Shown piece by piece: positions 308 through 49,022 of a stretch of DNA of 49,718 nt. The first letter of the stretch is position 1, and the number at the start of each line of letters is the position of its first letter. The notes under the pieces were generated by a model. That model did not search any database. It was not told the DNA's origin and saw only the letters and a program-made list of their open reading frames with translations. Origin of the DNA: Thermoplasmata archaeon (lineage in GTDB: Archaea; Thermoplasmatota; Thermoplasmata; Lutacidiplasmatales; UBA184); assembly GCA_021828665.1 (NCBI GenBank), contig JAJZDH010000001.1:1-49718 (forward strand), in the 5' to 3' direction. The position numbers and the translations under genes were made by a program.

Positions 308-3300
308 TTACGCCGGAGGGCTTCCTCCGCCCTCGGATCCGGATGAATTCATGCTGCCATCGCTCTGCATCTTGGGAAGTTCCCCCGGATTGGACCCATC
401 GTAGGTCGACGTGGAGCTCGAGCTCGTGGTGGGGCTCGTCGAGGAGGTTCCCCGGCTACCCCCGCCTCCCCGCCGCGATAGCATCACGATGGCGATCGCC
501 GCGACGAGAATGAGGATCACCGCGATCGCCCCGTACAGATAGATCGGGTTCAGGCCTGTCGAGGTTGGGCCCTTGGGCGTAGGTGGACAGGTATTCGTCT
601 GCGTGCAGTTCGTGGGGGGTGGGGACTGTGTCAGCAGGATGGGAACGTAGGTGACATTCCCCGGCGACACCGCCACGGTGGCGAAGCTCAAGCTTTCATA
701 GCCACCGGCGGAGCCCGTGACATTGTAGAAGCCCTTTCCCGCCGGCTCCGTCACATTGAACAATCCCGTGACCAGGTTCACCGTGATGTAGTTCTGATTG
801 ATCTGGACGTGCCCGGTCACCGGGGTGATCGTGCCGTTGATCCACCCCTCGTTCGTGAGCTTGATCGTGAGCGGCGTGGTCTTCTCGGGCACGACGACCA
901 CATCCCATTTGAACAGGCTGTAGCCGGGCGCCGTCGCCGTCACCACATGCGTCCCCCCCGGGAGCTCGGCGGTGGTGAACGACCCCGCACTGACCGTCTG
1001 GGGGACGCCGTCGACCTGCACGAACGCGGTGGTGGGCACGACGGAGATATGGATGTAGCCACCGACCAGGGTCACGGCCACGGAGGTCGTCTGGCGGGGG
1101 TTCACGCTGACGTTATCGAAGAACGGGGCGTATCCGGTGAGACTCCCCTGCACCTCATACGTCCCCCAGGGGACGACCAGCGAAAAGATGCCGGGGGAGA
1201 TGATGCCGGGGGTCGTCCCGTTGATCGTCACGTTGGCCGCGGCCGGCGTGATGGTTCCATTGATCCATCCCGTGGTCCGCGGCAGCACCGCGGAGACCCG
1301 GACGACCTCGAACTGGGAGGTGGGCACCGTGGTCGTGTAGGTCTGGTAGTCCGGACCGGCCGAGATGGTGACCACGTACGACGGTCCCGCCGGGACGGTC
1401 TCGTTGTAGGCGTCCGTTGTCCCGTTGTGGGCCAGCAGGGCCGCCGCCGTCGACCCGATGTGCACCGAGAGGGAGGGGACATTCGGTCCCACGAACCCGA
1501 CGATGAACGCCGCCGGAACCGCGATGTAGTTCGCGGTGAGGCTGGCGCGCTGTCCGCCGTAGGTAAAGATGGCCGGATCCTGCAAACTGGTGGTCAACCC
1601 CGACCAACCGGAGAACTCGTAGACGTAGGTGCTGTTGTCGGAGGCGAACTGGGGCGCCTGGACCCGGACCGCGCTTCCGTTGAGGACCACGACCGACCCC
1701 GGCGCGGAGACGACGGAAGTGGTGGCCGGAGAACTGACCGAGACATTGATCCCGGCCACATTGCTCGAGACATTGACCAAGTGGAGATTGGCGGAGAAGA
1801 TCTGCTCGTTGAGATTCGCGCAGGTGACGTCACGGCAATCCGACCACGTGGCGTAGGCGCCATTCGAGGAACCCACGAGACCGGTGTTCGGACCGAAGTT
1901 CGCGAACCCGGAGGCCCCGGTCAGGCTCGTCTGATCGGAGACCTGGAAGATGGGCGACCACTTGGCTCCCCCATCGGTCGACACCACGGCCTGCTCGGTG
2001 AACTGGCCACTGGTGGAACTGGCCTCGTAGAAGGTGACCCAGAGGTACCCGTTCGCGTCGACCGTGATCTTCGGATCCGCATAGCTGGTGATGCCGGTGA
2101 GATTGGCCGTAAGGTAGACCGGGCTCGACCAGGTCGCGCCACCGTTCGAGCTGCTCGAATAGGCCACGCTCGGTTCGCCGATCGCCGAGAAGGACCGGTT
2201 GTCTCCCCAGACCAGGTACAGCGTGCCTTCATGGGAGGAGCCGGGAACCGTGTTGACCGCCAACGAATAGATGGGGGTCACTTGATAGTTGATGGAGTCG
2301 TCCGGAAGGCTCTTGACCAGGAACACCGAGGGCCCGATCAAGTTCTTCATGACGGACCAGGTGGAACCGTTGTCGGTCGATGTGGCGAGCGAGGTGGTGA
2401 AGCCCGCCGCGGTCGCGGCGACGGAGCCGTTGAGTCCCATGAGATACAGGTCGTAGCTCGGAGCCGGCCCCACGGAAAGGGTGGGGAAGAGCGTGTTGTT
2501 TCCGTGAAGGACGGGCGCCGACCAGGTGACCCCGCCATCCGTCGTCGTGGAGGTGTAGGTGTTGAACGAGGTGGCCGGCGGAGAGACGTACAGCTGGCAG
2601 GTTCCCGAGGAGGCCGACCAGAAGAATTTGCCGCCATAGTTGATCTTCTCTTCGGTCCACGCGACCGTCGCATCCCCGTTCACGGGGTTCATCGCGATCG
2701 ACGGAGTCCCGTACGTCGTGTTGCCTCCCAGGTACCCCGCCACGGCCGTTCCGCCGGTGCAGTTGGCCTGGTTCGTCGGAGCCGGAACAACAACATACAC
2801 GAACGGATTCCACTGGGAGATATCGGCGGTCTGGACCCAGTGAGCGCCTCCGTTCGGGGAGCGGGCCACGGCGACGCCCTGCGGCGCGGTGATATTGGCC
2901 GTGTTGTTGCAGGCGGAGATGGCGGTCGGGGGAAGAACCCCGCAAGCCTGGGTGAACAGGCCCGCCATGAGGAGGTTCCCGGTGCTGTTCGAGGCAAGGC
3001 TCAGCGGCTCGGCTCCCGGCGCGGCGAACGTGGGGTTGAAGAGGGCATTGCCGGCACCCCAGATCGAGCCATAATCCGATGCGCCGGTCTGGCTCCAGGT
3101 GGCGTTGGCCGGGGGCGTTGCGAAGGTGACGGTGCCCCCCACCGTCCGCACGAACTCCACGAGCCCGCTGTGGAAGAAGGAGGCGCTCGGCAGGAAGCCG
3201 CTGTCCCAACCCGTCAGGACGCTTCCGTTCGCAATGGAGTTCCAGCTGTAGATCGCGGTTTCGGTCGAGCTGTTGGACTTGCCGATCAGGGTGGTCGTGG

Positions 3301-3697
3301 AGGAGTAGCTCAGATTGAAGAGGAGCGTGTTCTGCGCCGTCGATCCGTCGGCGGGTCGGGCGAGCGACCGGCCGGCGAGGGACCCGGTCGGAAGATGGAC
3401 GGCCAGCGCCGAGAACGGCGTGGCTGCCGGGAGCGGGTGCGACGAGGGGGCGGCTCCAAAGTTGGCGGCGCCGGTCCGGGCTTCGGTCGCGAAGGGCACG
3501 ACGCTGCCCCTTGGCGCGGGGACCGCGCCGGGACCGAACGTGGAGCTCGAAAGGAGGGCTCCCGAGGGGGAGACCATCACCGCCACCACCAGAAGGACGA
3601 GGGACAGGAGGAGGAAACGACCCCAACGGCCCGAGAGGGGTCCGGAGAGTCTGTTCGCGAGTGGGGCTTCGTTGGTCAGCGTCTGCGATGAGTTCAT
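308..3697 (-). CDS. Membrane-anchored surface glycoprotein with BNR/Asp-box (sialidase-like) beta-propeller and C-terminal beta-sandwich (CarboxypepD_reg/PEGA-like) modules, 1129 aa
   Basis: Full ORF with an N-terminal hydrophobic signal/anchor (FLLLSLVLLVVAVMV). Five Asp-box motifs: SPNGGAHW, TTDGGVTW, STDNGSTW, SSNGGATW, STDGGAKW. Repeated GWINGTITP...ING beta-sandwich modules, then a Pro/Thr stalk and the TM helix IYLYGAIAVILILVAAIAIVML followed by RRGGGG and a Ser/Thr tail. Dozens of N-x-S/T sequons. Its ATG overlaps the upstream stop (tcat at 3694-3697 = ATGA). Confidence 0.85.
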   Translation of the reverse strand: MNSSQTLTNEAPLANRLSGPLSGRWGRFLLLSLVLLVVAVMVSPSGALLSSSTFGPGAVPAPRGSVVPFATEARTGAANFGAAPSSHPLPAATPFSALAVHLPTGSLAGRSLARPADGSTAQNTLLFNLSYSSTTTLIGKSNSSTETAIYSWNSIANGSVLTGWDSGFLPSASFFHSGLVEFVRTVGGTVTFATPPANATWSQTGASDYGSIWGAGNALFNPTFAAPGAEPLSLASNSTGNLLMAGLFTQACGVLPPTAISACNNTANITAPQGVAVARSPNGGAHWVQTADISQWNPFVYVVVPAPTNQANCTGGTAVAGYLGGNTTYGTPSIAMNPVNGDATVAWTEEKINYGGKFFWSASSGTCQLYVSPPATSFNTYTSTTTDGGVTWSAPVLHGNNTLFPTLSVGPAPSYDLYLMGLNGSVAATAAGFTTSLATSTDNGSTWSVMKNLIGPSVFLVKSLPDDSINYQVTPIYSLAVNTVPGSSHEGTLYLVWGDNRSFSAIGEPSVAYSSSSNGGATWSSPVYLTANLTGITSYADPKITVDANGYLWVTFYEASSTSGQFTEQAVVSTDGGAKWSPIFQVSDQTSLTGASGFANFGPNTGLVGSSNGAYATWSDCRDVTCANLNEQIFSANLHLVNVSSNVAGINVSVSSPATTSVVSAPGSVVVLNGSAVRVQAPQFASDNSTYVYEFSGWSGLTTSLQDPAIFTYGGQRASLTANYIAVPAAFIVGFVGPNVPSLSVHIGSTAAALLAHNGTTDAYNETVPAGPSYVVTISAGPDYQTYTTTVPTSQFEVVRVSAVLPRTTGWINGTITPAAANVTINGTTPGIISPGIFSLVVPWGTYEVQGSLTGYAPFFDNVSVNPRQTTSVAVTLVGGYIHISVVPTTAFVQVDGVPQTVSAGSFTTAELPGGTHVVTATAPGYSLFKWDVVVVPEKTTPLTIKLTNEGWINGTITPVTGHVQINQNYITVNLVTGLFNVTEPAGKGFYNVTGSAGGYESLSFATVAVSPGNVTYVPILLTQSPPPTNCTQTNTCPPTPKGPTSTGLNPIYLYGAIAVILILVAAIAIVMLSRRGGGGSRGTSSTSPTTSSSSTSTYDGSNPGELPKMQSDGSMNSSGSEGGGSPPA

Positions 3698-6600
3698 ACG
3701 TGTTCCTCAGGATTCGGAGTCTCCTCGGTGGGAGCCGAGATGCCTAGGCGCGGCTCCTCTTGAAGGTTTGCAGGGCCGGTCGACGGCTCGTCCATCGACG
3801 CCATCGATGCGCCGGGGGACGCGCTGGCGGGCGGCTCGCCGGGCGACGATCCGCGTCGTCGCCGGGCGAAAAGGACCGCCGCGACCAGGGCGGCGAGGCC
3901 GAGCAAGAGAACGCCCACCGCCAGGGTCGGGAAGGCGAAGTTCGTGAACGGGGGAGCGGTGCTGACGCTCAGGGTCGTGTTGGAATAGGCCAGCCGGCCG
4001 TACGGATCCTTGACCACCAGACGGACCTCAAACACGCCCGGGTGGGTGTAGTCGTGCGACGTGAAATTGGCCGGCGTCACCGCCGAGCTTCCGTCTCCGA
4101 AGTTCCAAGTGTAGGTGTACGTGTACGGTGGCACCGGGGTCGCCACGTTGGCCTGGAAGGGCACCTGCGAGTTCGTATACGATCCGGAGGGCGCCTGCAG
4201 GGTGACGACGGGGGGCACCGGCCCGAAGAGGAATTCGACCCAGCCGCTTCCCGTCAAATTGACCTCGGTGGCTCCGCCGCCCACCACGACGCCCGCGCTC
4301 GAATTCCAACCGGTCAGGTAGTCGCCCGCGCACCCCGTGGGATCCACCGCGTAATTTCCCTGGATCAGTTCGACCGACGAGTTGTTGAAGTACTCGGCTC
4401 CCTGGAAGAGGACACCACCGCACGCGGCGGGGGTGACGAGGAAGGTCAGCTGGTACTTGAGGGGGGAGAACAGCGCGGTCAGGATTCCGCTCCCTTCGAG
4501 GGTCAGCGTTCCGGGCCCGAGGAGGGCATCGGTGGTATTCTGCCAGCCGGAGAATCCATACCCGTTGCAGGCGGTGGCCCGCAACGGCACCGGCGCATTC
4601 TCCGGGATGGTGGCGGTCGCTCCATTGGTATAGTTCGCACCGTTGAGGGAGATCGTTCCGCAACGGCTCGGAAGCGTGTACAGGTAGGCGACCGCGAGCG
4701 GATGGAAGATCGCCGTGATGGAACCTGGACCGCTCACGAAGGCCGTGTTGCTTCCCGTGATCTGGATCCCGAGACCGATGGTCGACCAGCCCACGAAGCC
4801 CTCTCCCGCGCACGGAATGGCCCCCAGCGACCAGCTCGTATCCGGCGCCACGTAGGTGGACTGGGTGTCGGCATACGGGACACCCCCGAAGAGGATCTCG
4901 CCGCAGTGAGCCGGGTTGGTCACGAATCCCACCCAGGTCTTCGGAGTGCCCTTGCCGAACGTTGCAATGAGGAAGCCGCTTCCCTGGATGGCCACCCGGT
5001 TGCCGGTGACCTGGATGCCGCCCGAGCCGCTGAGACCCGTCGGATAGAACCCGGCGCAGGAGACCGGATAGGCGGTCGCGTTCGAGATCCCGGTCGCATT
5101 GAGGACGGTGTCGTTCCCGTACGTACCGTTGTAGGCCCCCCCGATCCACCGGATCCCTCCGCAGAATCCCGGAACGGTGATCACCGTGACCAATTTCAGG
5201 GGATAGTTGATCTCGGTCACGGTTCCGGTCTGCTGCACCGTGATCGCACCGGCCGATATGGAGATCCCGGGGGTAACCTCGAACGTCCGGAAACCGTAGT
5301 CCACGCAGGGAAGCTGCTCGATCGGGTACGGGGTTCCCGGTGCGACCGAGACGTTCGAATTGTTGACGTAGCCCGCCCCCCGGAACAAGATCCCGCCGCC
5401 GGGGCAGGACGCCGGTTGCACCTGGAAATCGAGCGTGATCGCCTGGCTGCTCGGGAGGTAGTTCGCGGTGATGGTCCCATTGCCCTGGAGGTACAGGACC
5501 GATCCCAGGATCGCGATCGTCGAGCTATTGGAGACGGTCCACCCCGAGAAGCTCGAAAGCGCGCAGGCCTGCTCGTCGAGAGTGTAGTTCTCATCGTCGA
5601 GGAGGGGAACCGAGGTGGCGAACGAATAGGAGGTCCCGTTGAGTACGATGGTCCCGCATCCGGACGGAGGGTTCGCGATGGCGAGGGAGAGGGTGTCCGT
5701 CGGGCGGATGTAGCGCCAGAACCCCTCCAGCGAGCCATTCGCGGTGATGGTGATCTCCCCCCGCGCCCCGGAAGGAACGGTGATGCCGGCCGACGCCGTC
5801 CAATGGCCGAAGACCCACGGGTAGCAGAGTTGGGCGGAGAGAGGGTAGGTGCCGGCCTCGATCGCGGCCGTCTGCCCGTTCGTATAGCGGGTCCCGTTCA
5901 GGACGATCGCCCCGCAGCTTCCGGCATTGATGGTCACCGAGACCGAGAAGGTCGGGATGGTTTCCCGCTGGACGAACATCGTCTTGAGGCCGGGCGCCGG
6001 AAGGCCGATCACTTCGCCTGCGCTATCGGTGGCCCACACCCGGTAACTGATCTTCCCATCCCCGCCGGTCGCCGGAATCGAGCCGCGGTAATACCCGTTC
6101 GAGAGGGTTCCGTTGGTCCGGTTCATGGTCGCGTTCCCGCCGCTCCCGTCCGGCAAGGTGTACGCCACCGAGACCTTCGAGATGTTTCCCAACACCTGCC
6201 CCAGGACGGTCACATTCAGTCCGGTGGAGGGAGCAACGAATCCACCGCGGGAACTGTTGGTGAGGGAAGTGAGGAAAAGCGGCACGAAGGCGGTCGGATA
6301 CCCGGTGGTCTGGTACTGGTTTCTCCCTCCGAAATTCTGGGTGGCCCAGGGTTTCTGGGTGGGGAAATTGAGCTGGCTTCCGTTGAAGGTGAACTCGGGA
6401 TAGTAGCCGGTGGTGGGGCCGAGGGGGCAAAGGATCCCGGAGATGGGGCTCGAAGCGCAGGCCCCGGTCAGCGACATCGGGGAGAACTCGGCAAACTGGC
6501 CCGAATAGGCCGTGCCGTTGAAGTATGTGGGAGGGTCCAGAACGACCGGGTCGGTGCTGTTGAGCGTCGATTCGGTATAGGAATAGCACGAATACGGCGC

Positions 6601-8006: not shown

Positions 8007-8093
8007 CCCGATTCCTGCGAATGCCGCCGTGGGGCCTCGCCGTGGGGTTCACCGGCCCGCCGCGGGATCCGCCGGTCGTGGGGCCACAACGGC

Positions 8094-11000
8094 TTAGCCA
8101 CGCGTCCCATACGTCCGGATGAACTCCTCCGCCCACGCGAGCGTTTCCGGAGTGATGCTCGACTTCGTCTTCCCGACGGCGGCGAGGAGGTTGCTCATGC
8201 GGATGCCGACCACCTCGCTCTTCGGTTCCTTGGCGCCGACCTTGACCGCCCCCTTGCCGAACAGCCCGCCGACTCCCCCGGCGGGGGAGGCGGAAACCTC
8301 CGTCACGAGCTGCTCCCGCAGGGCGATCAGCTTCGCCTCATCGACACAATTGGCGATGTCGGCCCCGCTGAAGCCGTCCGAGCGCCGGGAAAGGTCCCCG
8401 AAGTCGACGCTCCCGTCCACGGGCACGCCCTTCAGATGGATCCGGAAGATATCCTGGCGGGCCGCGACATCGGGCGGCGGCACGTAGAAGATCTTGTCGA
8501 ACCGACCCGGTCGCAGCAGCGCCGGATCGAGCGTCTGGGGCCGGTTGGTGGTGGCGATGATGATGACCTTGTCCTTCGGCCGCAGCCCGTCCATTTCCGT
8601 CAGGAACTGGCTGACCGCCCGGGAGACTTCGGGGGTGCGCATCGATTCCTTCGACGCGAGGGCGTCAATCTCGTCGAAGAAGACGATGGACGGGGCATTC
8701 TCGCGCGCCCGGTAGAGCACATCCCGCACGGCCGCCTCGCTCTGCCCGGCGAGGGCGCTCACCAGCTCCGGACCGTTCACGATCTGCATCGGGACGTTGA
8801 GCTCGTTCGCCGCCGCCCGCATGATGTGGGTCTTCCCGCACCCCGGGGGACCGAAGAGGAGGATGCCCCGGCCGCTCTTGATCTTGTAGCTCTCCATGAG
8901 CTCGGGCCGGGTGAGCGGCAGTTCGACATACTCCCGGATCGCCTGCTTGATGTCGGTGAGCCCGCCGACATCGTCCCAGTGGACGACGATCTTGCGCTCC
9001 ATCCGCTGGGTCTGGTGCATCTTCCGCTCGTAGTCGAGCTTCATCGTCTCGTAGTCCGTGATCATCCGCAGCGAGATCGAGGGCTTGATCCGGGGCATGA
9101 CCTGGTTGAAGTCGTCCATGGTGATGACGCTGTCCGCCTTCGTCATCATCGACCTGCGGACGGCGATCGTGGCCGCCTCGCGCACCAGGTTGGCCAGATC
9201 GGCGCCGCTGAACCGCTCCGTCTTCTTCGCGATCTCGGAGAGATCGATGTCTCCCGCGACCGGTCGTCCGGAGAGGTGGACATGGATGATCTCCATGCGC
9301 TCGTTGAAGTCGGGGGGCGGCACGTAGATGATCTTGTCCAGCCGGCCAGGGCGCATCAGGGCCGGGTCGATCATGTCGGGCTTGTTGGTGGATCCGATGA
9401 CGATGACCCCCGCGGACTTGTCGATACCGTCCATCTCGCTCAGCAGGATGGAAAGGATGCGCGGCGTGACATCATCGGCGGTGTACATGTCCCGGCGCTT
9501 GGCCACCGCATCGATTTCATCCATGAACAGGATGCACGGGGAACGCTCCCGGGCCGTGCGCAGGAGATCGGCGACCCGGTTTTCGGACTCCCCGTACCAC
9601 TTGCTCATGAGGTCGGAGCACTTGATGGAGATCATCTCCACCCCGAGCTCGCTCGCGAGCGCCTTCATGAGCATCGTCTTCCCGCAGCCGGGGGGACCGA
9701 ACAGCAGAATCCCCTTCGGCGGCTCCAGCTTGAACCGGGTGGTCACGTCCTTGCGCATCAAGGGGATGATCATCGACTCCTTGATGTCCGCCTTGACATC
9801 GTGGAGCCCTCCGACCATCTCGAAGGTGGTCTTCTGCAGCCCCTTCATCTCGGCGACCCGGGAGCCGACGCTGGTGGCCCCGAGGCGGCTCGTGAAGTAG
9901 GACTCGAAGACATCCTTGAGGACCAGCCCTCCCGCGACGCACGTGATCATGGCCGGGATGAACAAGAGGGCGCCGATCATCCAGAGCGAGGTGTAGTTGA
10001 AGGCGACCATGCCCACCAGGGTGACCCCCGCGAGCACGGCCCCGGCGATCGCTCCCGACTGGAACAGGTTGCGCTCCGTCTGGCGCTCCCTTTCCTTGAA
10101 AGCGACGGTGACGATCCAGGCGGCGAATACCCACGCGCCGATCTGGGCCATGGGAATCGCGAGCTCCCCGAAGCCGCCGGAGCCCTGGACCAGCACCTGG
10201 AAGTTCGGGAACAGAAGGTTCGCGTAGGCCGAACCGATGCTGTTGAGCGTGAAGTACGGGATGGGAAGCGTCGGGAGCAGGGCCGCGGCGTGACCCGACA
10301 CCAGGGTGCGGCTTCCGTTCCCTCCGGGGCCCACCAGGTACCCAAAGATCGGCAGATTTCCGAGCGTGACGAAGAGGCTGATCAGGAGCCCGCCCGCCAC
10401 CGCCACCGCGAGGCCGAGATAGAGCGAGAAGATGAGGGCCATGAAGATCGGGACGGCGAACGACAGGCCCACGGGGGCGAGGAACAGCGTGAGCAGCGTT
10501 CCGAACGCGAACCGCCAATCGACGAGGCCCGCGTACAGGACCGGCAACACGGCGAAGAGGAAGACCAGCCCCAACGCCCCGCTCTGGTACGCCACTTCCG
10601 GAACCACGAGGAGCGTGAGGACCAGGAGGGCGAGCTGGGGGTATTTCCAGGCGATCGCCATCACCGCGCCCACGATCAGGATGACGTACGGCCAGGGATA
10701 GAACGGGAACATGAATCCCGCGAACGCCGCCGTGGCGCCGAGGAGCCCGACGACCAGGTTCCGGGGGTCCTTCGTCTGCTGGCGGACCCACTTCTCGAGC
10801 GGGGAAGCGAAGACGAACGCCCCGATCAGGCAGAGGATCCCGAGGATGATGAGGAAGAGGAACAAGCCGTCGTATTGCCAGTTGGGCACCGGCTGGATAT
10901 ACTGGCCACCGATGGCGACGGCGGAAGCCCCGGTGGGTCCGCCCTGCGAGATCGCCGCATGCGTCGCGTCCGCCGCGGCATCCAGCGTGAGATAGCTCAC

Positions 11001-11807
11001 CGAGCTGTAGACTCCCCCCGGTAGCTGGGTCTGGACGATGGTGAAGGTCATGAGCACCGAACTCCCCGCGGAGAGCCAGCCGAGCTGACCTTGGTAGGTG
11101 CCGAACAGATCGGTCGCGAGCGTCGATTGGGTGGTCGCCTGCAGCGACGGTTCGCCGGTGATGGAAGCGAAGGCGAGGGTCGTGATGCCGGAGCTGGAAT
11201 TGTACTGGACGGAAGAGACCTTGTCCTTGATGTAGACCGTGTCGCCCACCGACACGCCCTTCGTCAGGCGGACCACGTGGACCGCGGGATTCGCGTTCCA
11301 CATCTGGGCGCCCGAATCGGTCAGGAACTGGGAGGCCGTCTGCGTCCCGGTCGAATACGGCTGCCCGGCGATCTCGGAGTAGAAGGTGAAGCTGAGGGCG
11401 GCCCCCACGATGACCAGAAGAAGTCCCGCGATGGCGAGCGACACCCAGATGCGCCGACCGCTCTGGCCCTTGGCCGGAATCCCGACGCCGCTCCGTTTGG
11501 CGGGTGGGAGACGAACCTGAGCCACGGGGGCCCGAGCCGACGGGGTGGGTTTGATGGCGGTCCCGGGGCTCTTCGCCGAGGGCTGGATTCCCGTGGACGG
11601 CTTCGCCACGGTGCCGGAGGGGGCGGCCCGCGGAGCGGCACCGGGGGAGCCGGTCCCGGCCGGGGCGCTCGCCGGCCGGGCAGGGGCCGGAGCGGCGGGT
11701 CGGGCGGGCACCGGTGCCGGAGCCCCCGGTCCCGATACGGGTGTACCGGCCACAGGGCTGGGCGCGGCCGACGTGTTCTTCTTCTGGGGATTCGCTTCTC
11801 CGCTCAT
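8094..11807 (-). CDS. Cdc48/VCP-like double AAA+ ATPase fused to a large N-terminal polytopic membrane domain (1237 aa)
   Basis: ATG at 11807 is preceded by GGAGG 13 nt upstream. The C-terminal 577 aa (8097-9827) contain two complete AAA cassettes: Walker A GPPGCGKT twice, Walker B ILFMDEID and IVFFDEID, arginine-finger regions PALMRPGRLD and PALLRPGRFD. The N-terminal ~660 aa have a Pro/Ala-rich ~140-aa segment, a TM helix (IWVSLAIAGLLLVIVGAAL), a ~200-aa Ser/Thr-rich loop, and about ten more hydrophobic helices. Confidence 0.9.
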   Translation of the reverse strand: MSGEANPQKKNTSAAPSPVAGTPVSGPGAPAPVPARPAAPAPARPASAPAGTGSPGAAPRAAPSGTVAKPSTGIQPSAKSPGTAIKPTPSARAPVAQVRLPPAKRSGVGIPAKGQSGRRIWVSLAIAGLLLVIVGAALSFTFYSEIAGQPYSTGTQTASQFLTDSGAQMWNANPAVHVVRLTKGVSVGDTVYIKDKVSSVQYNSSSGITTLAFASITGEPSLQATTQSTLATDLFGTYQGQLGWLSAGSSVLMTFTIVQTQLPGGVYSSVSYLTLDAAADATHAAISQGGPTGASAVAIGGQYIQPVPNWQYDGLFLFLIILGILCLIGAFVFASPLEKWVRQQTKDPRNLVVGLLGATAAFAGFMFPFYPWPYVILIVGAVMAIAWKYPQLALLVLTLLVVPEVAYQSGALGLVFLFAVLPVLYAGLVDWRFAFGTLLTLFLAPVGLSFAVPIFMALIFSLYLGLAVAVAGGLLISLFVTLGNLPIFGYLVGPGGNGSRTLVSGHAAALLPTLPIPYFTLNSIGSAYANLLFPNFQVLVQGSGGFGELAIPMAQIGAWVFAAWIVTVAFKERERQTERNLFQSGAIAGAVLAGVTLVGMVAFNYTSLWMIGALLFIPAMITCVAGGLVLKDVFESYFTSRLGATSVGSRVAEMKGLQKTTFEMVGGLHDVKADIKESMIIPLMRKDVTTRFKLEPPKGILLFGPPGCGKTMLMKALASELGVEMISIKCSDLMSKWYGESENRVADLLRTARERSPCILFMDEIDAVAKRRDMYTADDVTPRILSILLSEMDGIDKSAGVIVIGSTNKPDMIDPALMRPGRLDKIIYVPPPDFNERMEIIHVHLSGRPVAGDIDLSEIAKKTERFSGADLANLVREAATIAVRRSMMTKADSVITMDDFNQVMPRIKPSISLRMITDYETMKLDYERKMHQTQRMERKIVVHWDDVGGLTDIKQAIREYVELPLTRPELMESYKIKSGRGILLFGPPGCGKTHIMRAAANELNVPMQIVNGPELVSALAGQSEAAVRDVLYRARENAPSIVFFDEIDALASKESMRTPEVSRAVSQFLTEMDGLRPKDKVIIIATTNRPQTLDPALLRPGRFDKIFYVPPPDVAARQDIFRIHLKGVPVDGSVDFGDLSRRSDGFSGADIANCVDEAKLIALREQLVTEVSASPAGGVGGLFGKGAVKVGAKEPKSEVVGIRMSNLLAAVGKTKSSITPETLAWAEEFIRTYGTRG

Positions 11808-11832
11808 CGCTCTTCGTTCTCCTCCGTTTCTT

Positions 11833-15731: not shown

Positions 15732-16374
15732 ATCTACCGTTTCCCCGGTGACGTGGTTGGACTGCTGTCTCGCAGAAGGTCGTGGGTGATGGGCCGCTAG
15801 TCGCCTCAAGGGTTCCGTCGTGGGGGGACGCTTGGGGGGTTATAGACTTCTAGCCCTCGGGCTCGGGAGGATTGGCGGCGGTTGAGTTCCGGCGCCGCCT
15901 CTCCCGGGCCTGCTGGATCTCGAGTGAGGCGCGTGGAGGATCCCCCCACCTTCGGGCCCCAGGTGGAGGCCGATCTATCGAATCCCACGGCGAGCTCCTG
16001 GCCGGGGCCGGCCACGTCCCCCGACCTTGCCATGGAATCGACCGGGCCGGCCGCTATCGGCCCTCTCCCGGGAACCTACGGCGGGAAGGGAGTCCGCCCG
16101 ACCCGGCGCCTCGAGGACGCCCCCCGATTCCGACGCCGTCCATGGAATCTCGCCGCCTTCCGGAGGGAGCGAACGAGTTCCCGGGGATCCCGCGTGAAGC
16201 TTCTCCCGCTCCCTTTCCGCGGTCCCGTCCGGAGCTCCAGCGGTCCCCCCGGGACCGCTTGCCGGGCGGGTGGCCCGGCAGAGGGGCCCGTCTTCCCCGA
16301 TGGGAACCGGACCCACGACCCCGCGGGGAGGGGGAGCCCCGAGGGGGTCCGTCGGTCGGGGTGGCATGGTCGGC

Positions 16375-19563: not shown

Positions 19564-19855
19564 GGTCACCTCACCGCAGACGGCCGGCTCCTATCCCCGG
19601 CAGGGCATGTCGGGGGAGCGAACCCGGTTCGCTCGGGGACCCGGGAAGCTTCGTTCGCTGTGGATGCGGGCGGCAGGGTCCCGAACCTCGGTCCGAAGGA
19701 ACGACGAAAGGAGGGCCCCAGGGAATTCGCCGAGACGAATCCCCGCCCCGACCGCGGCCGACTTCCGAATCCTGCCGCCCGGGAGGCCCGGCCCCTGTCC
19801 GGGGCGCCCCCGGGCGCCCCGGTGCCGCCGGCGCCGCCGGGAGTCGACGACATGC

Positions 19856-22021
19856 CTATTCGAAGCGACCGATCCCCGAGCCGGAGGACTGCTGCCGACC
19901 GGCCTCGAACATCGACACGGCATTCTTGTTCTTCCCGGACATCGCGGCCACGGCCATGGAGATCGGCCGATTCCTCTGGGTCACCCGGATGAAGCCCGCC
20001 CCGAGGAAGCCGGCGGTGGCGGCCTGCAAGGCGACGTTCGCGACTCCCACCTGGGCGGCAATCCCGATGGGGGAGATGACCGGCAACGCGGGTGGGATCG
20101 CAATCGGGATGGGGGGTGGTACGATGGGAGGGGGCGGAGGCAGAGCGATCGGGGGCGGCCCGACGGGGGTCACCTCCACGGTCAGTACGGCCACGGGGAA
20201 CGATTCGACCACGGACGTCACGTTGGTGATCGGCAGGTACGCCGCCCACGAATACAGGCCGCCCACGGGCTGGCTACCGGCCACCGCGCAGGAGTACCCG
20301 AGGCAGGCATCGACCGGCACCGTGGCGAACGGCGGCCCGTTCACGATCACGTTGAACGAAACCGACCAGATATCCCCGATGTACATCTGGTTGGTCGAGG
20401 CATTGCTGCTCCAGTTCCAGCCGTAGGTGCTGTACACGCCGGACGCCCCGCTGCCGCTGAATCCCGTGTAGTTGGCCTGGACCGGCTCCGCGACGCAGTG
20501 CGTCGGACCGGCCCAGAGCACGCCGTTCCCCAGCGCGCACGACGAGGTGAAGTTGGGGCCCCCCAGCGATGCCGGGGCGATCTGGACGGCTCCGTAGGGC
20601 GCGAACTGGAACATGGGCTGGTGGGTGCCGTTCGCGACCAGCGTGGTCTCGATCGGTCCGAAGCCGATCCCGCGGAACGCCGCCAGCAACGTCGGGTTGT
20701 TGGTGTTGGGCGTGTAGGGGCTCCCGATGGGGACCTCCTGCAGCTGGCCGGTCTGCCCGTCCGGGCAGGAGAAGTAGTTGGGGCCGTTCCACGTCCCGCC
20801 CGTGGCGGCGGCCATGGCGCACCCGGCGAGGAGGATGTCCGTGGAGTCCTTCCAGGAGAGGACGCTGTTGGGACCACCGTTCGTCCGGCCGGCCACCCAT
20901 TGCTTGGAATACGGGTTGGTGACCCCGTTGTACAGGTCGATGACATCCACCGTGCACACCTTTCCGATCGAGTCCGTGCACTCCGGCGCGGTGCGGGCAA
21001 GACCGGCGATGGAGTCCGAGACATTGCCGTTGTTGGAACGGACCCAGCCTTCGCACTCCGGGCTCTGGACCGCCCCGAAGTTGTAGGACGGTTCGCATCC
21101 CGGACTCATGCAGTTCTGGCAGTAATTGGCATAGTCCGAGGAACTCGGGTAATAGTTGATCGTGAAGCTCGGATCCCGCGGAACCGTCGATCCCATCCAG
21201 ACGATGACATGGTGCGTGTTCGGCGACCAGTCGAGGCCGCTTCCGATGATGGTCCCGTAGAGCGCCGTGATCACCGAGGAGTGGAGGATGTTGTCCGAAA
21301 GGTCCGAATCGGAGTAGATGTACCCGCCGTCCAAGACATTGGCCTGGAAGGATCCCGCGACGGCGCTTCCGAAGTCGCTCGCCGGGACGAAGGAGGGGAT
21401 GTCGACATGGTACTCGAGCCCATCTCCGTCGTCAAAGTTGTCGAGCGTCGCAAAGTAGTCCACCATGGCGAAGGAGACCTGGCTGTGGGGATTCGCGGCC
21501 TGGATCGCCCCCGCGATCTGCTGGGCGTGGGCGACGAAGAACGGGACCCCGTTCGATTCGTCGCAGACCGCGCCGCCCCCCTGGGCGCAGACGTCGTTGC
21601 CAGGGTCGCCCGCGCTGGGATCGTAGACGCCATCGTAGGCGGTGGTCTCCACCACGAAGGCGACCTGCACGGCCGGCCACGCCTCAATCCCGTTCGGGGA
21701 GGCTTCGGCGGTCATGGTCACCCGGCTCACTCCGTTCCCCACCGCGCAGTCGGTCCCCCCGTAGGCGCAGACGGCTCTCGGATTGTCCGAGATGGAGAGC
21801 GTGAGCCCGGGAACCGCCTGGGCCGAGGGGACGGGAATGGCCGCCGGGGCGGCCAACGACACCAACGGCGTCGCATCCACCGGCGGGGCCGGCGCGATCG
21901 CCGGATGGATGGAACCCGTGCTCGTCGCCGGCACCGCCGGGCCGAAGGCCCCGATCAGCACCCCAAGGACAAATCCGGCCAATAGCAAGACCAGCGTTCG
22001 GCGCCCGAAGACCTTCCTCAT
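19856..22021 (-). CDS. Surface protein, 721 aa, Cys-rich ectodomain (possible vWA/Rossmann-like alpha/beta core), Pro-rich stalk and conserved C-terminal anchoring module
   Basis: ATG at 22021 overlaps the stop of the giant upstream gene (ATGA 22018-22021). Signal is MRKVFGRRTLVLLLAGFVLGVLIGAFG. Strand-like VAFVVETT and HVIVWMGST segments suggest a vWA-like fold, but this is a weak call because there is no DxSxS. The C-terminus is PPPIALPPPPPIVPPPIPIAIPP...ATAGFLGAGFIRVTQRNRPISMAVAA. It is homologous to the C-terminus of CDS 42126..44384. Confidence 0.85.
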   Translation of the reverse strand: MRKVFGRRTLVLLLAGFVLGVLIGAFGPAVPATSTGSIHPAIAPAPPVDATPLVSLAAPAAIPVPSAQAVPGLTLSISDNPRAVCAYGGTDCAVGNGVSRVTMTAEASPNGIEAWPAVQVAFVVETTAYDGVYDPSAGDPGNDVCAQGGGAVCDESNGVPFFVAHAQQIAGAIQAANPHSQVSFAMVDYFATLDNFDDGDGLEYHVDIPSFVPASDFGSAVAGSFQANVLDGGYIYSDSDLSDNILHSSVITALYGTIIGSGLDWSPNTHHVIVWMGSTVPRDPSFTINYYPSSSDYANYCQNCMSPGCEPSYNFGAVQSPECEGWVRSNNGNVSDSIAGLARTAPECTDSIGKVCTVDVIDLYNGVTNPYSKQWVAGRTNGGPNSVLSWKDSTDILLAGCAMAAATGGTWNGPNYFSCPDGQTGQLQEVPIGSPYTPNTNNPTLLAAFRGIGFGPIETTLVANGTHQPMFQFAPYGAVQIAPASLGGPNFTSSCALGNGVLWAGPTHCVAEPVQANYTGFSGSGASGVYSTYGWNWSSNASTNQMYIGDIWSVSFNVIVNGPPFATVPVDACLGYSCAVAGSQPVGGLYSWAAYLPITNVTSVVESFPVAVLTVEVTPVGPPPIALPPPPPIVPPPIPIAIPPALPVISPIGIAAQVGVANVALQAATAGFLGAGFIRVTQRNRPISMAVAAMSGKNKNAVSMFEAGRQQSSGSGIGRFE

Positions 22022-28000: not shown

Positions 28001-28026
28001 CCGAGGCCTTTCGCGGCGGCGCCCAT
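22018..28026 (-). CDS. Giant membrane-anchored surface protein, 2002 aa, built from >=14 CarboxypepD_reg/PEGA-like beta-sandwich modules
   Basis: Internal ATG at 28026 (MGAAAKGLG...AVAIALAVGVGALMILSPLSVISVFAG) lies 25 nt downstream of a consensus TATA box. The module signature G-x-(V/I)-x-D-x-x-(T/S)-G-x-P-(V/I)-x-x-A-x-V recurs, for example GTVLDALTGEPLPGAVTV, GFIVDNSTGLGVPSATISL, GTVVDSALGVPVYGASATV, GLISDGLTGAPISQARIVV and GLVVDSLTGAPIANASVVI. C-terminal TM is GSALLLAGIAAIGVVAYLGLG. Confidence 0.9.
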   Translation of the reverse strand: MGAAAKGLGDRLTNNGTERFPTGRRLPFVPWNRGQRAVAIALAVGVGALMILSPLSVISVFAGSTTSNTSSGLGAGAGGNAALRDVAASGPTSSPGLRPSQVNIGQDPQSEPLVTSQTLAATPSLFPHPTGLQLNIWNNVTNASGQPGWGVLQAPSAHPGSGTQASSVRAATTNLQTATAWGYVKTLVNGAVTAVPGAAVQAYPVGLSCPTTTCAPGTTTQNGYFKIVVLVPADQIQVTAGGYLDNYTLLTNISAGSNYDVGTIFLVPDASICGYVEGADPGHEPVADIEAVGQSRDGRIIASPSAYTNSAGHFCTFVPPGPSEVTFTPVQGNGLYFPSNVYVDLQPGQVDSTNWGIGGGNVMYLQLGVKVTATLYSSTTGKEIYNWLGSFFAFAAIRACERDNTGVCFNEGSVTVLPGSPGPVSPIAIAPAAPDLITFYATGYISNTTYITVPELAPGHTYNMGRINLIQNGIVELTPTLTYAKAAANAIAKWGTGLVYETVCSLDGFKFSQVTQNTFGGYNMTNSECQGGQGCGNLNNTVEMIAAPLRNSINILPDDTGTCHPPIPTWPIPGDLPVTGNWSYINATPDRILNIGSVGLTPGTYVLGNVAPSTALWSASDCSTDELSWCGATAPGNTYYLQNNITIYYQHVDEDPAGCPATYYYFCVPVVPGPSLISITGLTSTSNSTVAYVPPGVWSQLPLPLDLASPRHATSINLTGAEITGTVLDALTGEPLPGAVTVSLSAAGLNTEPSGGTVADAAGAYAITALPGWVLVHAASPNFLVNFTWVYVGSGIVHARTIYLTPESYLEGRVVGPNGYSLNTSSAQVCPISNKGVGCLPIIGSGLTSTNGSYFALLPAAHLPIGGYMVVANAPGYLSNSTWVNVTEPGQTYTATTIVLRPILGSAGLPASRPHATNGSAAYVYGFIVDNSTGLGVPSATISLDPVGGGTPVTVASSISDIGQFNFTLGVGAYSFNVTYTGVYYPWSGFLTVNGSAPYINESTIRLVPLGYLRGRIVVDPWRNVVTISEGIGVQTLVTVASHNHEITSLGETDSGGFFNISAVNSKADLVFSVPSGGGQGSARQGFLENDTVWNTTKNGSLPFLVMGNVIYTAFTGVVRDGSTNNATPVRFGSIALTVATPNFAVFTYTEALGGGGEYTIFMPPGNITNGLTPASQVSAYMPHNFSYRFPLAWFANNLSLLENISASAVWLLPKISLAHFGWLNFQVDASVAAFGGTSSVVPYAVATATVITKNDSVVSGASAVADGHGFVNMTAPIGRNLTLTVAAPDFNGTVVENISVNESATTFVNGSSAQIGSILLQPWGWVWGTVVDSALGVPVYGASATVSNPNGSGTVGIISNGAGFFMSDAPPGAVDQVSVTLNGYLTNNTRVKVGVGELGNLTPLNLTGLGVVAGRIFVYPGNVPLYGATVSVCPIASPTCQNSNVTTNGTGYFWVVADPGRDTIAISAPGYSENTTPGTILVRSDVWEWAGNFVIDQYATVTGTLLGDPSGLPVVGANVSMCSAIALPGQPTGPCFVTVLTDSIGQFELSVPYGNYILALNATGYNATYLSLSLGPGEYASIGTIFLEALGTVQGTVFGQDTNAPVVGALVQACERWSVGNCTGNVPVSASGAFSLSGPPGPYVLVVAGPNYQDAYVHVVLLAGIVTTIFTIFLIPTGTNLLYSVQGSVVGGENSTPLDGAVVTAGSNFATATNASGGFVLSIPWGVYVLTAEQNGYSAESRTITVHADLSGIEFALPQTVYTVSGLISDGLTGAPISQARIVVGGTQLASSGPTGSYSVALPNGTYTITVSPPVTASNAGGYGTVNISVGISGAAVTRNILLYPGSTEISGLVVDSLTGAPIANASVVISGATEDGLPVSEGTLFTTAQGTFSARVYFGTYRINVSAAGYLPNFSPVVAKSSAILPATLALTPVSATATSGSGGFTLGSALLLAGIAAIGVVAYLGLGPWRTESGWSPPATNPSPQRLDGNKSTVQGGSP

Positions 28027-28051: not shown

Positions 28052-28059
28052 ATTATAAA
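28052..28059 (-). promoter_or_regulatory. Archaeal TATA box (TTTATAAT) with upstream purine-rich AAAGG (BRE-like) for the 2002-aa gene; geometry implies a leaderless or near-leaderless mRNA
   Basis: Minus-strand reading is ccAAAGG-TTTATAAT-tgaaatcgcggtcgtgggacccacg-ATG. An 8-nt all-A/T box stands out in a very GC-rich context. There are 25 nt between the box and ATG 28026. Confidence 0.65.
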
Positions 28060-48750: not shown

Positions 48751-49022
48751 CCTCTGCCGAGAACCTCGGCCCCGGCCCTTCCCGACCCGCTTCCGGCGGG
48801 TCCGGGGGCCTTTCGGTGGGAGGGCCGAGGCGAGGCGACGACCGGAACCGCCGCCGTCGGAGTTCTCGAGCCCCCTGGCCGCCGGAGCAGGACCGATCTT
48901 CGACCGACCCGATCCGCGCCGTCCGTGGGACCGAGGCTCCGCGAGCCGGTGGAGGGAACGATCCGGCCGCCCGTCGTCGGGCCGGAGGGTGGCGGCGGCC
49001 CGGCTTCACCGGGACCACTTCA

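Follow-up and report, generated by a model that had tools for sequence, protein, structure and literature searches.

Which function could be served by a gene cluster that combines very large surface proteins with an AAA+ ATPase? This question is raised by positions 308-28026 of the window, i.e. the whole stretch of 49,718 nucleotides analyzed here, and its carrier is a soil Thermoplasmata archaeon.

Organization and conservation of the gene cluster

The minus strand of this region carries nine ORFs, G1 to G9 (Table 1), at the positions given in the preliminary description, and none of them is a pseudogene, since all reading frames are intact and lack internal stops. The four ATGA overlaps (3694-3697, 7575-7578, 13653-13656 and 22018-22021) were found again, as was the 25-nt spacer between G5 and G4 (11808-11832) with the SD sequence GGAGGAG, whereas the 87-nt gap between G4 and G3 (8007-8093) had been overlooked. 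The internal genes are preceded by SD sequences or start in ATGA overlaps, while the first gene, G9, is leaderless. The sequence TTTATAAT at 28059-28052 is the sole intergenic window in the cluster with at least 7/8 A+T; this P1 box precedes the ATG of G9 by 25 nt, and the G9 orthologs in loci L088 and L005 are preceded by a P1-like element with the ATG 27-30 nt downstream of it. Hence, the view that the only strong promoter box lies at the far upstream end is correct regarding P1 as sole strongly AT-rich box, but it missed the weaker box P2, whose position upstream of G6 is kept in relatives, with the equivalents CTAGAGGTTTTTAGCC (L019, L058, L044), CTAGAGGTTTATATGC (L028) and GAGAGGTCTATATCC (L063). 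The conservation of this promoter-like element suggests that the cluster comprises two transcription units rather than one.

Table 1. Features of the gene cluster in the window
Feature	Description	Position	Strand	Basis
P1	BRE/TATA promoter of G9 (CCAAAGGTTTATAAT)	28052..28066	-	sequence read; leaderless mRNA
G9	surface glycoprotein, 2002 aa	22018..28026	-	Pfam CarboxypepD_reg; TM and sequon analysis
G8	VWA-like adhesin, 721 aa	19856..22021	-	homologs, hhalign, Foldseek
G7	fn3 and GLPxGxxW-repeat glycoprotein, 1062 aa	16375..19563	-	Pfam fn3, DUF5979
P2	BRE/TATA-like box (GGCTAGAAGTCTATAACC), probable internal promoter upstream of G6	15839..15856	-	sequence read
G6	beta-sandwich ectodomain and C-terminal TM helix, 692 aa	13653..15731	-	fused-ectodomain HMM
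G5	beta-sandwich ectodomain and C-terminal TM helix, 607 aa	11833..13656	-	fused-ectodomain HMM
G4, N-terminal half	aa 1-634	9906..11807	-	hydropathy profile; AF2 model
G4, C-terminal half	aa 635-1237	8094..9905	-	Pfam AAA x2, AAA_lid_3 x2
G3	small 2-TM protein, 143 aa	7575..8006	-	aligned with L002 and L004 orthologs
G2	glycoprotein, 1294 aa	3694..7578	-	Pfam PKD_4, Flg_new_2
G1	glycoprotein, 1129 aa	308..3697	-	Pfam BNR_2, PEGA

The related genomes comprise close, mid-distance and distant ones, all carriers are uncultured MAGs, and the counts for close and mid-distance genomes refer to informative loci with sufficient flank. The order G9-G8-G6-G5-G4-G3-G2-G1 is colinear and on the same strand in 31/31 informative close loci from 37 related species-level genomes, which argues for one conserved functional module, as had been anticipated; G7 is the only window-specific gene. 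In mid-distance genomes, G6-G5-G4 and a small TM gene are retained, and G8, G9, G2 and G1 are not found nearby. The distant clade shows the order giant Ig-repeat adhesin, VWA protein with polyproline stalk, fused AAA+ protein and small TM protein, with the VWA gene in 16/22 and the giant adhesin in 14/22 of the loci examined; the adhesins of the two clades have no detectable sequence homology to each other. The base composition, whose comparison with the flank had been proposed before, does differ (GC 0.60-0.69 in the cluster vs 0.71-0.75, GC3 0.78-0.91 vs 0.92-0.96), however, mostly at codon positions 1 and 2, i.e. it is largely driven by amino-acid composition. In view of its conservation across an order, the cluster is no island if this word denotes acquired DNA; judged by these comparisons, the cluster is inherited vertically in Lutacidiplasmatales-type Thermoplasmata and was not recently acquired.

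The membrane ATPase G4 and its predicted subunits

G4 is the key gene of the cluster. According to sequence comparisons, it is a tandem Cdc48/VAT-like AAA+ ATPase, in which a membrane domain of about 10 helices takes the place of the N-domain. Its C-terminal half consists of a linker, a D1 AAA domain with the pore loop KWYG, a D2 AAA domain with the pore loop ALAG and a conserved C-terminus (F[IM]xxYGTRx). The translation contains two Walker A (GPPGCGKT) and two DEID Walker B motifs as well as RPGR arginine fingers, the Pfam AAA matches reach 290 bits, and VAT of Thermoplasma is the closest solved relative in the PDB (614 bits). Thus, tandem D1-D2 domains, lids, Walker motifs and arginine fingers are shared with the type II classic AAA unfoldases VAT, Cdc48 and p97 (TIGR01243). 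However, G4 lacks CDC48_N and has instead a region of about 650 aa with a Pro/Ala-rich part, TM1, the ectodomain and the approximately 10-helix domain, it scores below the family cut-off (540 vs 802.65), an aromatic pore loop exists in D1 only, and the C-terminus ends with ...YGTRG and not with an HbYX motif. A protease domain is absent from G4, which gave no M41 match in Pfam and scores below the cut-off of TIGR01241 (464.8 vs 600). The hydropathy profile of the N-terminal half indicates a cytoplasmic Pro/Ala-rich stretch, TM1, an ectodomain of about 160 aa and the polytopic domain, in which the motifs PFYPW, DW[RK]F and YQS are invariant. This half is represented by 34 representative clusters among 1.84e9 proteins, and its AF2 model (pLDDT 75, pTM 0.78) found no matching fold in the PDB (best E = 0.23, TM-score <=0.19). 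Because the linker between the last TM helix and D1 comprises only about 35 aa, the ring has to be positioned right at the membrane. At least 91 species genomes, without exception from Thermoplasmatota, encode a member of the G4 family; in this phylum, the Thermoplasmata possess no PAN and depend on ATPases of the Cdc48 type (PMC3493965). Membrane-anchored archaeal AAA proteins of unknown function have been described as MBA from Sulfolobus (Serek-Heuberger et al. 2009, via PMC3493965), and as far as this source describes them they form a cluster separate from Cdc48, PAN, AMA and Vps4 (PMC3493965). The MBA family was described from Crenarchaeota, whereas the G4 family was found only in Thermoplasmatota.

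Gene arrangement and fusion both link G5 and its paralog G6 to the motor. Wherever the flank of a close or mid-distance genome is long enough, G5 (25/25 close and 14/14 mid-distance loci), G6 (22/22 and 12/12) and G4 are neighbours. In the distant P0135, P0138, P0141, P0144, P0146-P0150 and others, the N-terminus of the membrane AAA+ protein itself is formed by a G5/G6-like ectodomain, a TM helix and a basic linker. An HMM of these fused N-termini matched G5 with 120.8 bits over aa 213-603, including TM helix and tail, and G6, for which Pfam gave zero matches, with 87.5 bits; reciprocally, the G5-family HMM matched the fused N-termini with 30-71 bits. Given that the AAA+ part of distant relatives carries such an ectodomain with its TM helix and basic tail at the N-terminus, G5 and G6 are most likely subunits of the AAA+ complex and not ordinary coat proteins, with G5 as a probable extracellular subunit. 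The fusion supports a role as subunits and not as substrates, and it gives no hint on the identity of the substrates. In an alignment of the small protein G3 with its orthologs from L002 and L004 (117 aa), 23 columns are invariant, and G3 displays the conserved cytoplasmic motif IP.[FV]E[IV]F.P; a small multi-TM gene also comes after the AAA gene in the mid-distance and the distant loci, where the likeness to G3 is positional.

The VWA-like protein and the giant glycoproteins

The preliminary description assigned the same layout to all large products. N-terminal signal/anchor sequences, a single strong TM helix at the C-terminus with basic residues behind it, and enriched N-x-S/T sequons (z = 4.5-9.3 vs 2000 shuffles) indeed characterize G1, G2, G5, G6, G7 and G9, but not G8. 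The latter has a signal peptide, a beta-sandwich, a polyproline stalk, a weakly hydrophobic, Gly/Ala-rich anchor segment and the conserved C-terminus GIG[RK]FE, and its sequons are not enriched (z = 0.7, 2000 shuffles). More than 377 homologs (50-66% identity) exist exclusively in Thermoplasmata, one of them (P0011/L007) away from any AAA gene. G8 itself does not reach the Pfam VWA threshold, while its positional orthologs in distant loci do (53.7 and 54.8 bits), and hhalign linked G8 to that VWA family with 98.7% probability (E = 4e-16). In Foldseek, a model of moderate quality (pLDDT 63) retrieved PitA, SpaC and RrgA (E = 2e-9 to 5e-8) and integrin beta (E = 2.5e-6). Based on these matches, G8 is a VWA adhesin similar to the beta subunits of integrins and to tip pilins: as in RrgA, SpaC, PitA, GBS104 and integrin beta, the VWA/betaI domain is predicted to be inserted in beta-sandwich domains, and a stalked cell-surface adhesin is also found among the Gram-positive tip pilins. 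In contrast to them, the MIDAS motif DxSxS is changed to ExTxY in the degenerate strand FVVETTAYDG, and polyproline stalk and weak C-terminal segment serve as anchor without sortase/LPXTG or an alpha/beta heterodimer.

G9 (orthologs in 19/20 close loci) contains nine CarboxypepD_reg domains (213.6 bits, 9 stretches) and 60 sequons (z = 9.3), and its TM helix precedes a variable basic/Pro-rich cytoplasmic tail. G2 (30/30) combines InlB-B-like Cys-pair repeats (Flg_new_2, 34.6 bits) with PKD (PKD_4, 46.9 bits), 40 sequons (z = 9.1) and a variable acidic/Pro-rich tail. G1 (20/24) has a BNR propeller (BNR_2, 39.7 bits), PEGA/CarboxypepD_reg domains (PEGA, 40.4 bits) and the tail motif LPK[LM]QSDGSM, common to L063, L044 and L035. 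G7 (fn3 36.4 bits; DUF5979 with GLPxGxxW repeats 26.5 bits) follows a strong SD sequence (GGTGAGGTGA) and was absent from the cluster in 80 of 80 related loci; by this comparison it is a lineage-specific insertion into the G8-G6 gap. Most earlier fold calls were therefore supported by Pfam (BNR_2, Flg_new_2, PKD, fn3, DUF5979, CarboxypepD_reg, AAA), and VWA, Ig-like, PKD, BNR and CarboxypepD_reg ectodomains fit the adhesive surface role proposed there. Also in agreement, PGF-CTERM and the other NCBIfam sorting-signal models had zero matches in the cluster proteins. The seven large proteins are, however, not equivalent, because G5/G6 correspond to ectodomains fused to AAA+ elsewhere, G8 is VWA-like and G7 is an insertion. 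Cytoplasmic tails are conserved (...ERRxKAExEQRR[IV]TL-COOH in G5 and ...RRKxEE[KR]R[IV]TL-COOH in G6, sharing R[IV]TL-COOH; GIG[RK]FE-COOH in G8; LPKLQSDGSM in G1) while the ectodomains diverged (35-45% identity), which implies cytoplasmic partners.

Possible action of the surface apparatus

Classic AAA proteins that are tethered to a membrane, among them FtsH, Msp1, ERAD Cdc48, Pex1/6 and Ycf2-FtsHi, pull polypeptides towards the ATPase. FtsH/m-AAA, Msp1/ATAD1, Bcs1, Ycf2-FtsHi and ERAD Hrd1-Cdc48 resemble G4 in the N-terminal TM tether with an extracytoplasmic domain between, and a polypeptide would be expected to be pulled out of or across the membrane; in this regard, the archaeal surface with its N-glycoproteins is the topological equivalent of the ER lumen. 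G4 differs from them by two AAA rings instead of one, the missing protease domain, an extensive polytopic domain where those have 1-2 helices and an operon that also holds dedicated extracellular partners and adhesins, and no ubiquitin-like system is evident. We tentatively propose, as a quite conceivable reading, a Thermoplasmatota-specific surface apparatus in which a trans-membrane AAA+ complex works on adhesins with a C-terminal anchor, which it would probably pull on or extract. We infer that G4, G5, G6 and G3 form one trans-membrane core, in which helices of G4 itself would hold the ring immediately beneath the membrane, G5 and G6 would provide the extracellular beta-sandwich part and G3 the small TM protein. 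Clients or partners might be the integrin-like G8 and the giant repeat adhesins G9, G2, G1 and here also G7, held by their C-terminal segments with exposed cytoplasmic tails. The membrane-proximal D1 ring with the sole aromatic pore loop could grip these tails or membrane-embedded segments and pull them ATP-driven towards the cytoplasm, and the outcome would be an FtsH/Msp1/ERAD-Cdc48-like dislocase retracting, remodelling or removing surface adhesins. The presence of VWA protein and giant adhesin beside the motor in the distant clade, too, speaks for the adhesin link; on the other side, the mid-distance genomes show that adhesins are not obligatory neighbours. Moreover, the moderate model quality and degenerate MIDAS of G8 weigh against the reading, and moving a 2000-aa glycosylated ectodomain through the membrane is energetically demanding. 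The absence of an HbYX motif and of a protease domain, which could have accounted for what becomes of an extracted protein, also counts against it.

The ATPase could be a dedicated biogenesis factor, as suggested earlier, but we do not prefer this view, because a classic AAA unfoldase ring with its sole aromatic pore loop towards the membrane points to pulling or extraction. It belongs to the somewhat improbable scenario of a static glycoprotein coat or glycocalyx substituting for an S-layer, with G4 and G3 as assembly chaperones without later action. Sequon-dense, TM-anchored ectodomains, tight operon structure, conserved synteny, the lack of sortase-type signals and the abundant, conserved, apparently single-copy G8 and G5 families would suit such a coat. 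However, the ordinary signal/anchor sequences let Sec-dependent export be expected, for which AAA+ is unneeded, and we know of no classic AAA unfoldase acting as membrane insertase; furthermore, the G5/G6-ATPase fusion is easier to reconcile with a lasting complex than with a chaperone that binds its clients transiently, and G8 is of the adhesin type and not a lattice former. It seems distinctly unlikely that G4 is a general quality-control dislocase in place of FtsH, which archaea lack, with the adhesins nearby only due to shared regulation of envelope genes. Despite the FtsH-like succession of TM, ectodomain, TM and AAA, the mid-distance loci without adhesins and the occurrence of G8 away from G4, the linkage of G5/G6 to G4 is absolute and backed by fusion, the combination of motor, VWA protein and giant adhesin in two clades whose adhesins lack detectable sequence homology is unlikely by chance, and a housekeeping role would be expected beyond part of one phylum.

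We give an equally small chance to a force-transmitting adhesion or motility device, in which the AAA+ ring pulls the G5/G6/G8 tails cyclically or moves its own ectodomain, thereby switching adhesin conformation like integrin inside-out activation or shifting adhesins along the surface, comparable in function to the gliding legs of Mycoplasma or to the coupling of TRAP with a motor in Apicomplexa. The gliding machinery of Mycoplasma mobile consists of Gli123, Gli349 and Gli521 with an internal, F1-ATPase-like motor encoded elsewhere; very large, co-encoded TM-anchored surface proteins and a cytoplasmic ATPase motor are common to both systems, but a relationship in sequence or fold is lacking and no motility is known from these archaea. 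The integrin-beta/tip-pilin-like protein on its stalk with a conserved aromatic-acidic C-terminus, leg-like giant repeat proteins, the physical fusion of ectodomain and motor in relatives, the invariant polar motifs of the G4 membrane domain and the maintenance of the whole set across two distant clades are in line with force transmission. Nevertheless, homology to known motility proteins is missing, to our knowledge no AAA protein passes force through a membrane on to a domain outside, and neither motility nor surface structures have been observed in these uncultured archaea.

Returning to the dislocase-like apparatus, the pairing of integrin-like and giant glycosylated surface proteins with a membrane Cdc48-type motor is a combination without earlier description. 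Hence, the product of this cluster may represent a new kind of cell-surface machine.

Organization and inheritance of the cluster

The nine genes of the cluster, numbered G1 to G9 from low to high coordinate and transcribed from G9 to G1, are intact ORFs on the minus strand (see table); the window itself is part of a metagenomic contig (ENA ERZ27237206, k141_449527). Four ATGA overlaps and one 25-nt spacer with an SD, as reported in the preliminary description, were found exactly at the junctions, to which an 87-nt gap between G4 and G3 has to be added that was missing from its list; a conserved element was looked for within this gap and none was found. The layout formerly ascribed to all large products, i.e. 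a signal or anchor sequence, a sequon-enriched ectodomain and, near the C-terminus, a single TM helix followed by a basic stop-transfer, applies to G1, G2, G5, G6, G7 and G9 (sequon enrichment z = 4.5-9.3 versus shuffles), but not to the VWA-like protein G8, which shows no sequon enrichment and carries a polyproline stalk and a weakly hydrophobic Gly/Ala end. The earlier fold assignments were confirmed by Pfam, and the reported absence of a PGF-CTERM/archaeosortase-type signal agrees with NCBIfam, where none of the eight proteins besides G4 had a match at E <= 0.01. Moreover, S-layer and sorting-signal families gave no matches among the cluster proteins.

The host is a high-GC archaeon, whose housekeeping genes in the window are of archaeal type, namely Nre, archaeal MetK, Elp3 and type-2 IPP isomerase. 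Homologs of the cluster genes came exclusively from MAGs of Thermoplasmata, among which Lutacidiplasmatales of acid soils are numerous (PMC9287336). When the membrane domain of G4 was scanned as a profile against one genome per GTDB species, 91 loci were obtained, all from Thermoplasmatota. The best 80 of these 91 loci were compared with the window proteins by tblastn and fell into a close group (G4 identity at least 64%, 37 species), a mid-distance group (50-63%, 16 genomes) and a distant group (about 40%, 27, mostly low GC). Strand and gene order were identical in 31 of 31 informative close loci. Among close loci with sufficiently long flanks, G9 was present in 19/20, G8 in 19/21, G6 in 22/22, G5 in 25/25, G2 in 30/30 and G1 in 20/24, and the mid-distance group has kept G6-G5-G4 (G6 12/12, G5 14/14) together with a small TM gene. 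In hmmsearch, the small 2-TM protein G3 gave no significant match to the small TM proteins encoded at distant loci (E = 0.12). G7 was not found by tblastn in the relatives' clusters among the best 80 of 91 loci; since the window's two large gaps also lie on either side of it, G7 is a lineage-specific insertion in the G8-G6 intergenic region. No convincing target-site duplication was found around G7. An inverted repeat occurs in the G8-G7 gap.

This conservation across related genomes characterizes the cluster as an old, vertically inherited module and refutes the notion of an island in the sense of acquired DNA. The GC content, for which a composition check had been suggested, is below that of the flank; however, the difference resides mainly in codon positions 1 and 2, with GC3 still at 0.78-0.91, and reflects the Asn/Ser/Thr/Tyr-rich proteins. 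Horizontal acquisition was hence rejected given the order-wide colinearity, the mostly amino-acid-related GC effect and the lack of detectable flanking repeats. A defence system was rejected as well, because the PADLOC and NCBIfam matches were sub-threshold and generic for AAA: the IteA score of Ietis (IetA/IteA) reached 220.3 bits versus an equivalog cut-off of 510, and although this system also comprises a partner protease, IetS, the PADLOC matches were limited to AAA domains, with none for the neighbour genes. An Rfam scan of the whole window returned a tRNA-Pro only. Directly downstream of G1, past window position 1, an Orc1/Cdc6 gene is located, near which a replication origin may lie.

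The G9 promoter lies so close to the ATG that a leaderless mRNA can be deduced, and the element is kept upstream of G9 orthologs. The preliminary description had proposed a single co-expressed run. The promoter upstream of G9 agrees with it, but a second box with the G9-promoter consensus was found upstream of G6, where its position is kept in at least five relatives; two transcription units, G9-G8(-G7) and G6-G5-G4-G3-G2-G1, are therefore likely, as judged from these elements. The boundary between the units matches the evolutionary boundary between an ancient core and an adhesin module. For this analysis AT-rich boxes and oligo-T tracts were scanned and the sigma-70/intrinsic-terminator scanner was left aside, the host being archaeal; a T5 tract on the coding strand was absent from positions 1-29000. 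In two relatives the starts of the G9 orthologs appear to be called too far downstream, since the conserved BRE/TATA box has an ATG 27-30 nt behind it, which suggests that the genes are longer and leaderless.

Features of the window and of loci from relatives (L numbers; L001 is the source contig)
Feature	Position	Strand	Remarks
Cluster G1-G9	308-28026	-	nine ORFs
G4, membrane AAA+ protein	8094-11807	-	
G9 promoter, CCAAAGGTTTATAAT	28066-28052	-	25 nt from ATG
Second box, GGCTAGAAGTCTATAACC	15856-15839	-	upstream of G6
Inverted repeat, 19 nt	19667-19685 / 19763-19781		arms 84% complementary, 77 nt apart
tRNA-Pro (CGG)	29251-29325	-	1.2 kb upstream of G9 promoter; no integration signs seen
G1 cytoplasmic tail	308-470	-	LPK[LM]QSDGSM kept in L063, L044 and L035 orthologs, tail otherwise variable
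ORF, 901 aa	39392-42097	-	signal peptide, Kelch propeller, three PKD, TM helix, C-terminal PTH2 (97.7 bits)
Kelch-repeat protein	42126-44429	-	41% identity to G8 over 82 aa
Long ORF, up to 1455 aa	44365-48732	-	Kelch-repeat array (200.6 bits, 6 stretches); start uncertain
AT-rich box	49019-49034		sole one near the long ORF, upstream of its listed start
Orc1/Cdc6 gene	L001 21888-23291	opposite to G1	
G9 ortholog starts	L088 ~3562-3605; L005 ~4001-4045		
G4 orthologs in two ORFs	L002 10001-13536; L004 4148-7664		711+380 aa; 705+468 aa; break within or just after D1
Fused G4 homolog	L066 8759-12892		weak C-terminal SAP match (22.1 bits, below cut-off 23.9)

The membrane AAA+ protein G4 and its probable extracellular parts

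Residues 640-1237 of G4 represent a tandem classic AAA cassette (PF00004 twice, 290 bits; PF17862 twice, 93.5 bits), in which D1 and D2 alike possess the Walker motifs A (GPPGCGKT) and B (DEID) as well as arginine fingers of the form RPGR. The closest solved relative of the cassette is the unfoldase VAT of Thermoplasma (614 bits), aligned to its D1 and D2. The tandem AAA arrangement, the Walker motifs, the SRH arginine fingers and AAA_lid_3 are common to G4 and CDC48/VAT (TIGR01243); however, G4 scores 540 bits against the cut-off of 802.65 and has no Pfam match to CDC48_N or CDC48_2, the substrate/adaptor-binding N domain. G4 also remained below the PAN family cut-off. According to PMC3493965, proteasome-activating archaeal AAA proteins (PAN, Cdc48, AMA) dock to the 20S proteasome by a C-terminal HbYX motif. 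Instead of HbYX, G4 ends with F[IM]xxYGTR[GATQ], placing Tyr at -5, a pattern derived from close and mid-distance orthologs among 47 examined. The comparison with FtsH (TIGR01241), in which a single AAA domain precedes an M41 zinc-protease domain, yielded 464.8 bits versus a cut-off of 600, with the AAA domain alone matched and no match to Peptidase_M41; the TM-ectodomain-TM arrangement ahead of the AAA part is present in G4 as well, but about eight more helices follow. MoxR-VWA pairs differ by a single AAA_3/AAA_5 domain and a cytoplasmic VWA partner, whereas PF00004 is the top match of G4. The closest architectural precedents are FtsH-type membrane AAA proteins and the uncharacterised membrane-bound AAA (MBA) proteins of Sulfolobus, the latter judged from their mention in PMC3493965.

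The N-terminal ~640-650 residues comprise a cytoplasmic Pro/Ala-rich stretch, TM1 (aa 116-148), an ectodomain of ~160 aa (~150-308) placed before TM2 (309-339), and a ~10-helix domain marked by the invariant motifs PFYPW, DW[RK]F and YQS. Among 1.84 billion representative proteins, searched exhaustively with HMMER, only 34 clusters possessed this membrane domain. Its AlphaFold model is of acceptable quality (pLDDT 75, pTM 0.78) and gave no fold match in the PDB with Foldseek (best E = 0.23), so the domain appears to adopt a new fold. The linker between the last helix and D1 is only ~35 residues long, and an aromatic pore loop exists in D1 only (KWYG, with ALAG in D2); hence, the predicted gripping ring must be situated directly beneath the membrane. 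G4 is a membrane-integral and apparently catalytically competent double AAA ring. Two relatives have their G4 ortholog spread over two ORFs, which could be due to frameshifts in the assembly or to a true division of the gene.

In its distant members the G4 family reaches a greater length (1275-1400 aa), as the conserved membrane domain is preceded by a signal peptide, an ectodomain of ~400 aa, a TM helix and a linker rich in Lys. A profile of these fused N-termini matched G5 with 120.8 bits (aa 213-603, including the TM helix and tail) and G6 with 87.5 bits, while the other window proteins remained unmatched. Reciprocally, the matches of a G5-family profile to the fused proteins were confined to their N-terminal 34-400 residues (30-71 bits). 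These profile matches constitute a classic fusion (Rosetta-stone) link of G5 and G6 to G4, which together with their absolute adjacency to G4 indicates that these beta-sandwich proteins are probably separate-chain versions of the extracellular part of the motor. Hardly any variation occurs in their cytoplasmic tails (...ERRxKAExEQRR[IV]TL-COOH and ...RRKxEE[KR]R[IV]TL-COOH), in contrast to the ectodomains with an identity of only 35-45%. Neither G5 nor G8 was matched by sequence in the PDB.

G8 and the recurring adhesin partners

Among the extracellular proteins of the cluster G8 is the best conserved; its homologs number more than 377, at 50-66% identity. Pfam detected no family in G8 itself at E <= 0.01, leaving it below the VWA gathering score. 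In distant loci, however, the fused motor gene is directly preceded by one for a protein of 460-540 aa, which passes Pfam VWA and shares the polyproline stalk and C-terminal anchor with G8. The two families were connected by profile-profile alignment (hhalign; 98.7% probability, E = 4e-16), which spans the N-terminal sandwich as well as the first VWA strand. The aligned strand of G8, FVVETTAYDG, reads ExTxY instead of the MIDAS motif DxSxS; E125, T126, D130 and G131 are invariant across 30 homologs, and the orthologs end with the conserved ...GIG[RK]FE-COOH. The AlphaFold model of moderate quality (pLDDT 63) matched the VWA tip pilins PitA, SpaC, RrgA and GBS104 in Foldseek (E = 2e-9 to 3e-7, probability 1.0) and integrin beta subunits (E from 2.5e-6), at low TM-scores of 0.2-0.45. 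By its modelled VWA alpha/beta fold and the profile alignment, G8 is predicted to be a VWA adhesin, whose signal peptide places the VWA domain outside the cell, different from the cytoplasmic partner in MoxR-VWA pairs.

A Kelch-repeat protein of the window has a terminal beta-sandwich, polyproline stalk and weak anchor like those of G8, and it cross-matches the G8 position in every relative; this module looks like a reusable stalk-and-anchor device of the lineage. In its 901-aa neighbour a surface protein is, oddly, fused to a cytoplasmic translation-rescue enzyme, the peptidyl-tRNA hydrolase PTH2.

When 22 distant loci were examined, 14-16 of them showed the order giant Ig-repeat adhesin, VWA protein, fused ectodomain-membrane-AAA and small multi-TM protein. 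Their giant adhesins (Big_7, Big_13 or cadherin-like, 2000-2400 aa) showed no detectable homology to G9, G2 and G1, large repeat glycoproteins of the window; the pairing of motor, VWA protein and giant adhesin therefore recurs with different adhesin families, which argues for a functional link rather than chance neighbourhood.

Possible function and significance

G4 is coupled genetically and by fusion to an extracellular beta-sandwich module, and recurrently to VWA proteins and giant adhesins, the partner proteins having conserved cytoplasmic tails. It might well be that G4, G5, G6 and G3 form one trans-membrane complex, in which the D1 ring would engage tails or membrane segments and pull them inward. 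To our knowledge, all characterised membrane-tethered classic AAA proteins pull inward (FtsH, Msp1, Cdc48 in ERAD, Pex1/6, Ycf2-FtsHi). By this analogy we favour, still tentatively, an adhesin dislocase or retraction machine. A chaperone for coat assembly seems unlikely, and we consider a force transducer for adhesion or motility and a general quality-control dislocase equally improbable, each more so than the chaperone. The most far-reaching version, a new class of archaeal cell-surface machine in which a Cdc48 homolog, embedded in the membrane and topped by an extracellular crown, couples cytoplasmic ATP hydrolysis to integrin-like and giant adhesins, either as ERAD-like retrotranslocon for surface N-glycoproteins or as trans-membrane generator of adhesion or gliding force, is possible but doubtful.

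By curated criteria the cluster falls outside CDC48, FtsH and PAN, and it matches neither PGF-CTERM, MoxR-VWA nor defence systems. Membrane-tethered AAA unfoldases are known as a class. Archaea lack FtsH as far as we know. The family and its operon are without description in the searchable literature, which covers few subscription papers; the same applies to a membrane Cdc48, a Thermoplasmatota AAA/VWA cluster and archaeal integrin-like systems. The G4 family marks Thermoplasmatota that are widespread in soils, sediments and the sea (at least 91 species) and have uncharacterised cell envelopes, and through G8 archaea would gain an integrin-beta-like family of VWA adhesins. A membrane-built Cdc48-type unfoldase tied to extracellular domains and adhesins would be a concrete candidate for the removal or remodelling of archaeal surface glycoproteins, which bears on the question of whether Cdc48-driven glycoprotein extraction (ERAD) has an archaeal precedent. 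If it acts as a retrotranslocon, it may be a prokaryotic counterpart of Cdc48-driven dislocation.
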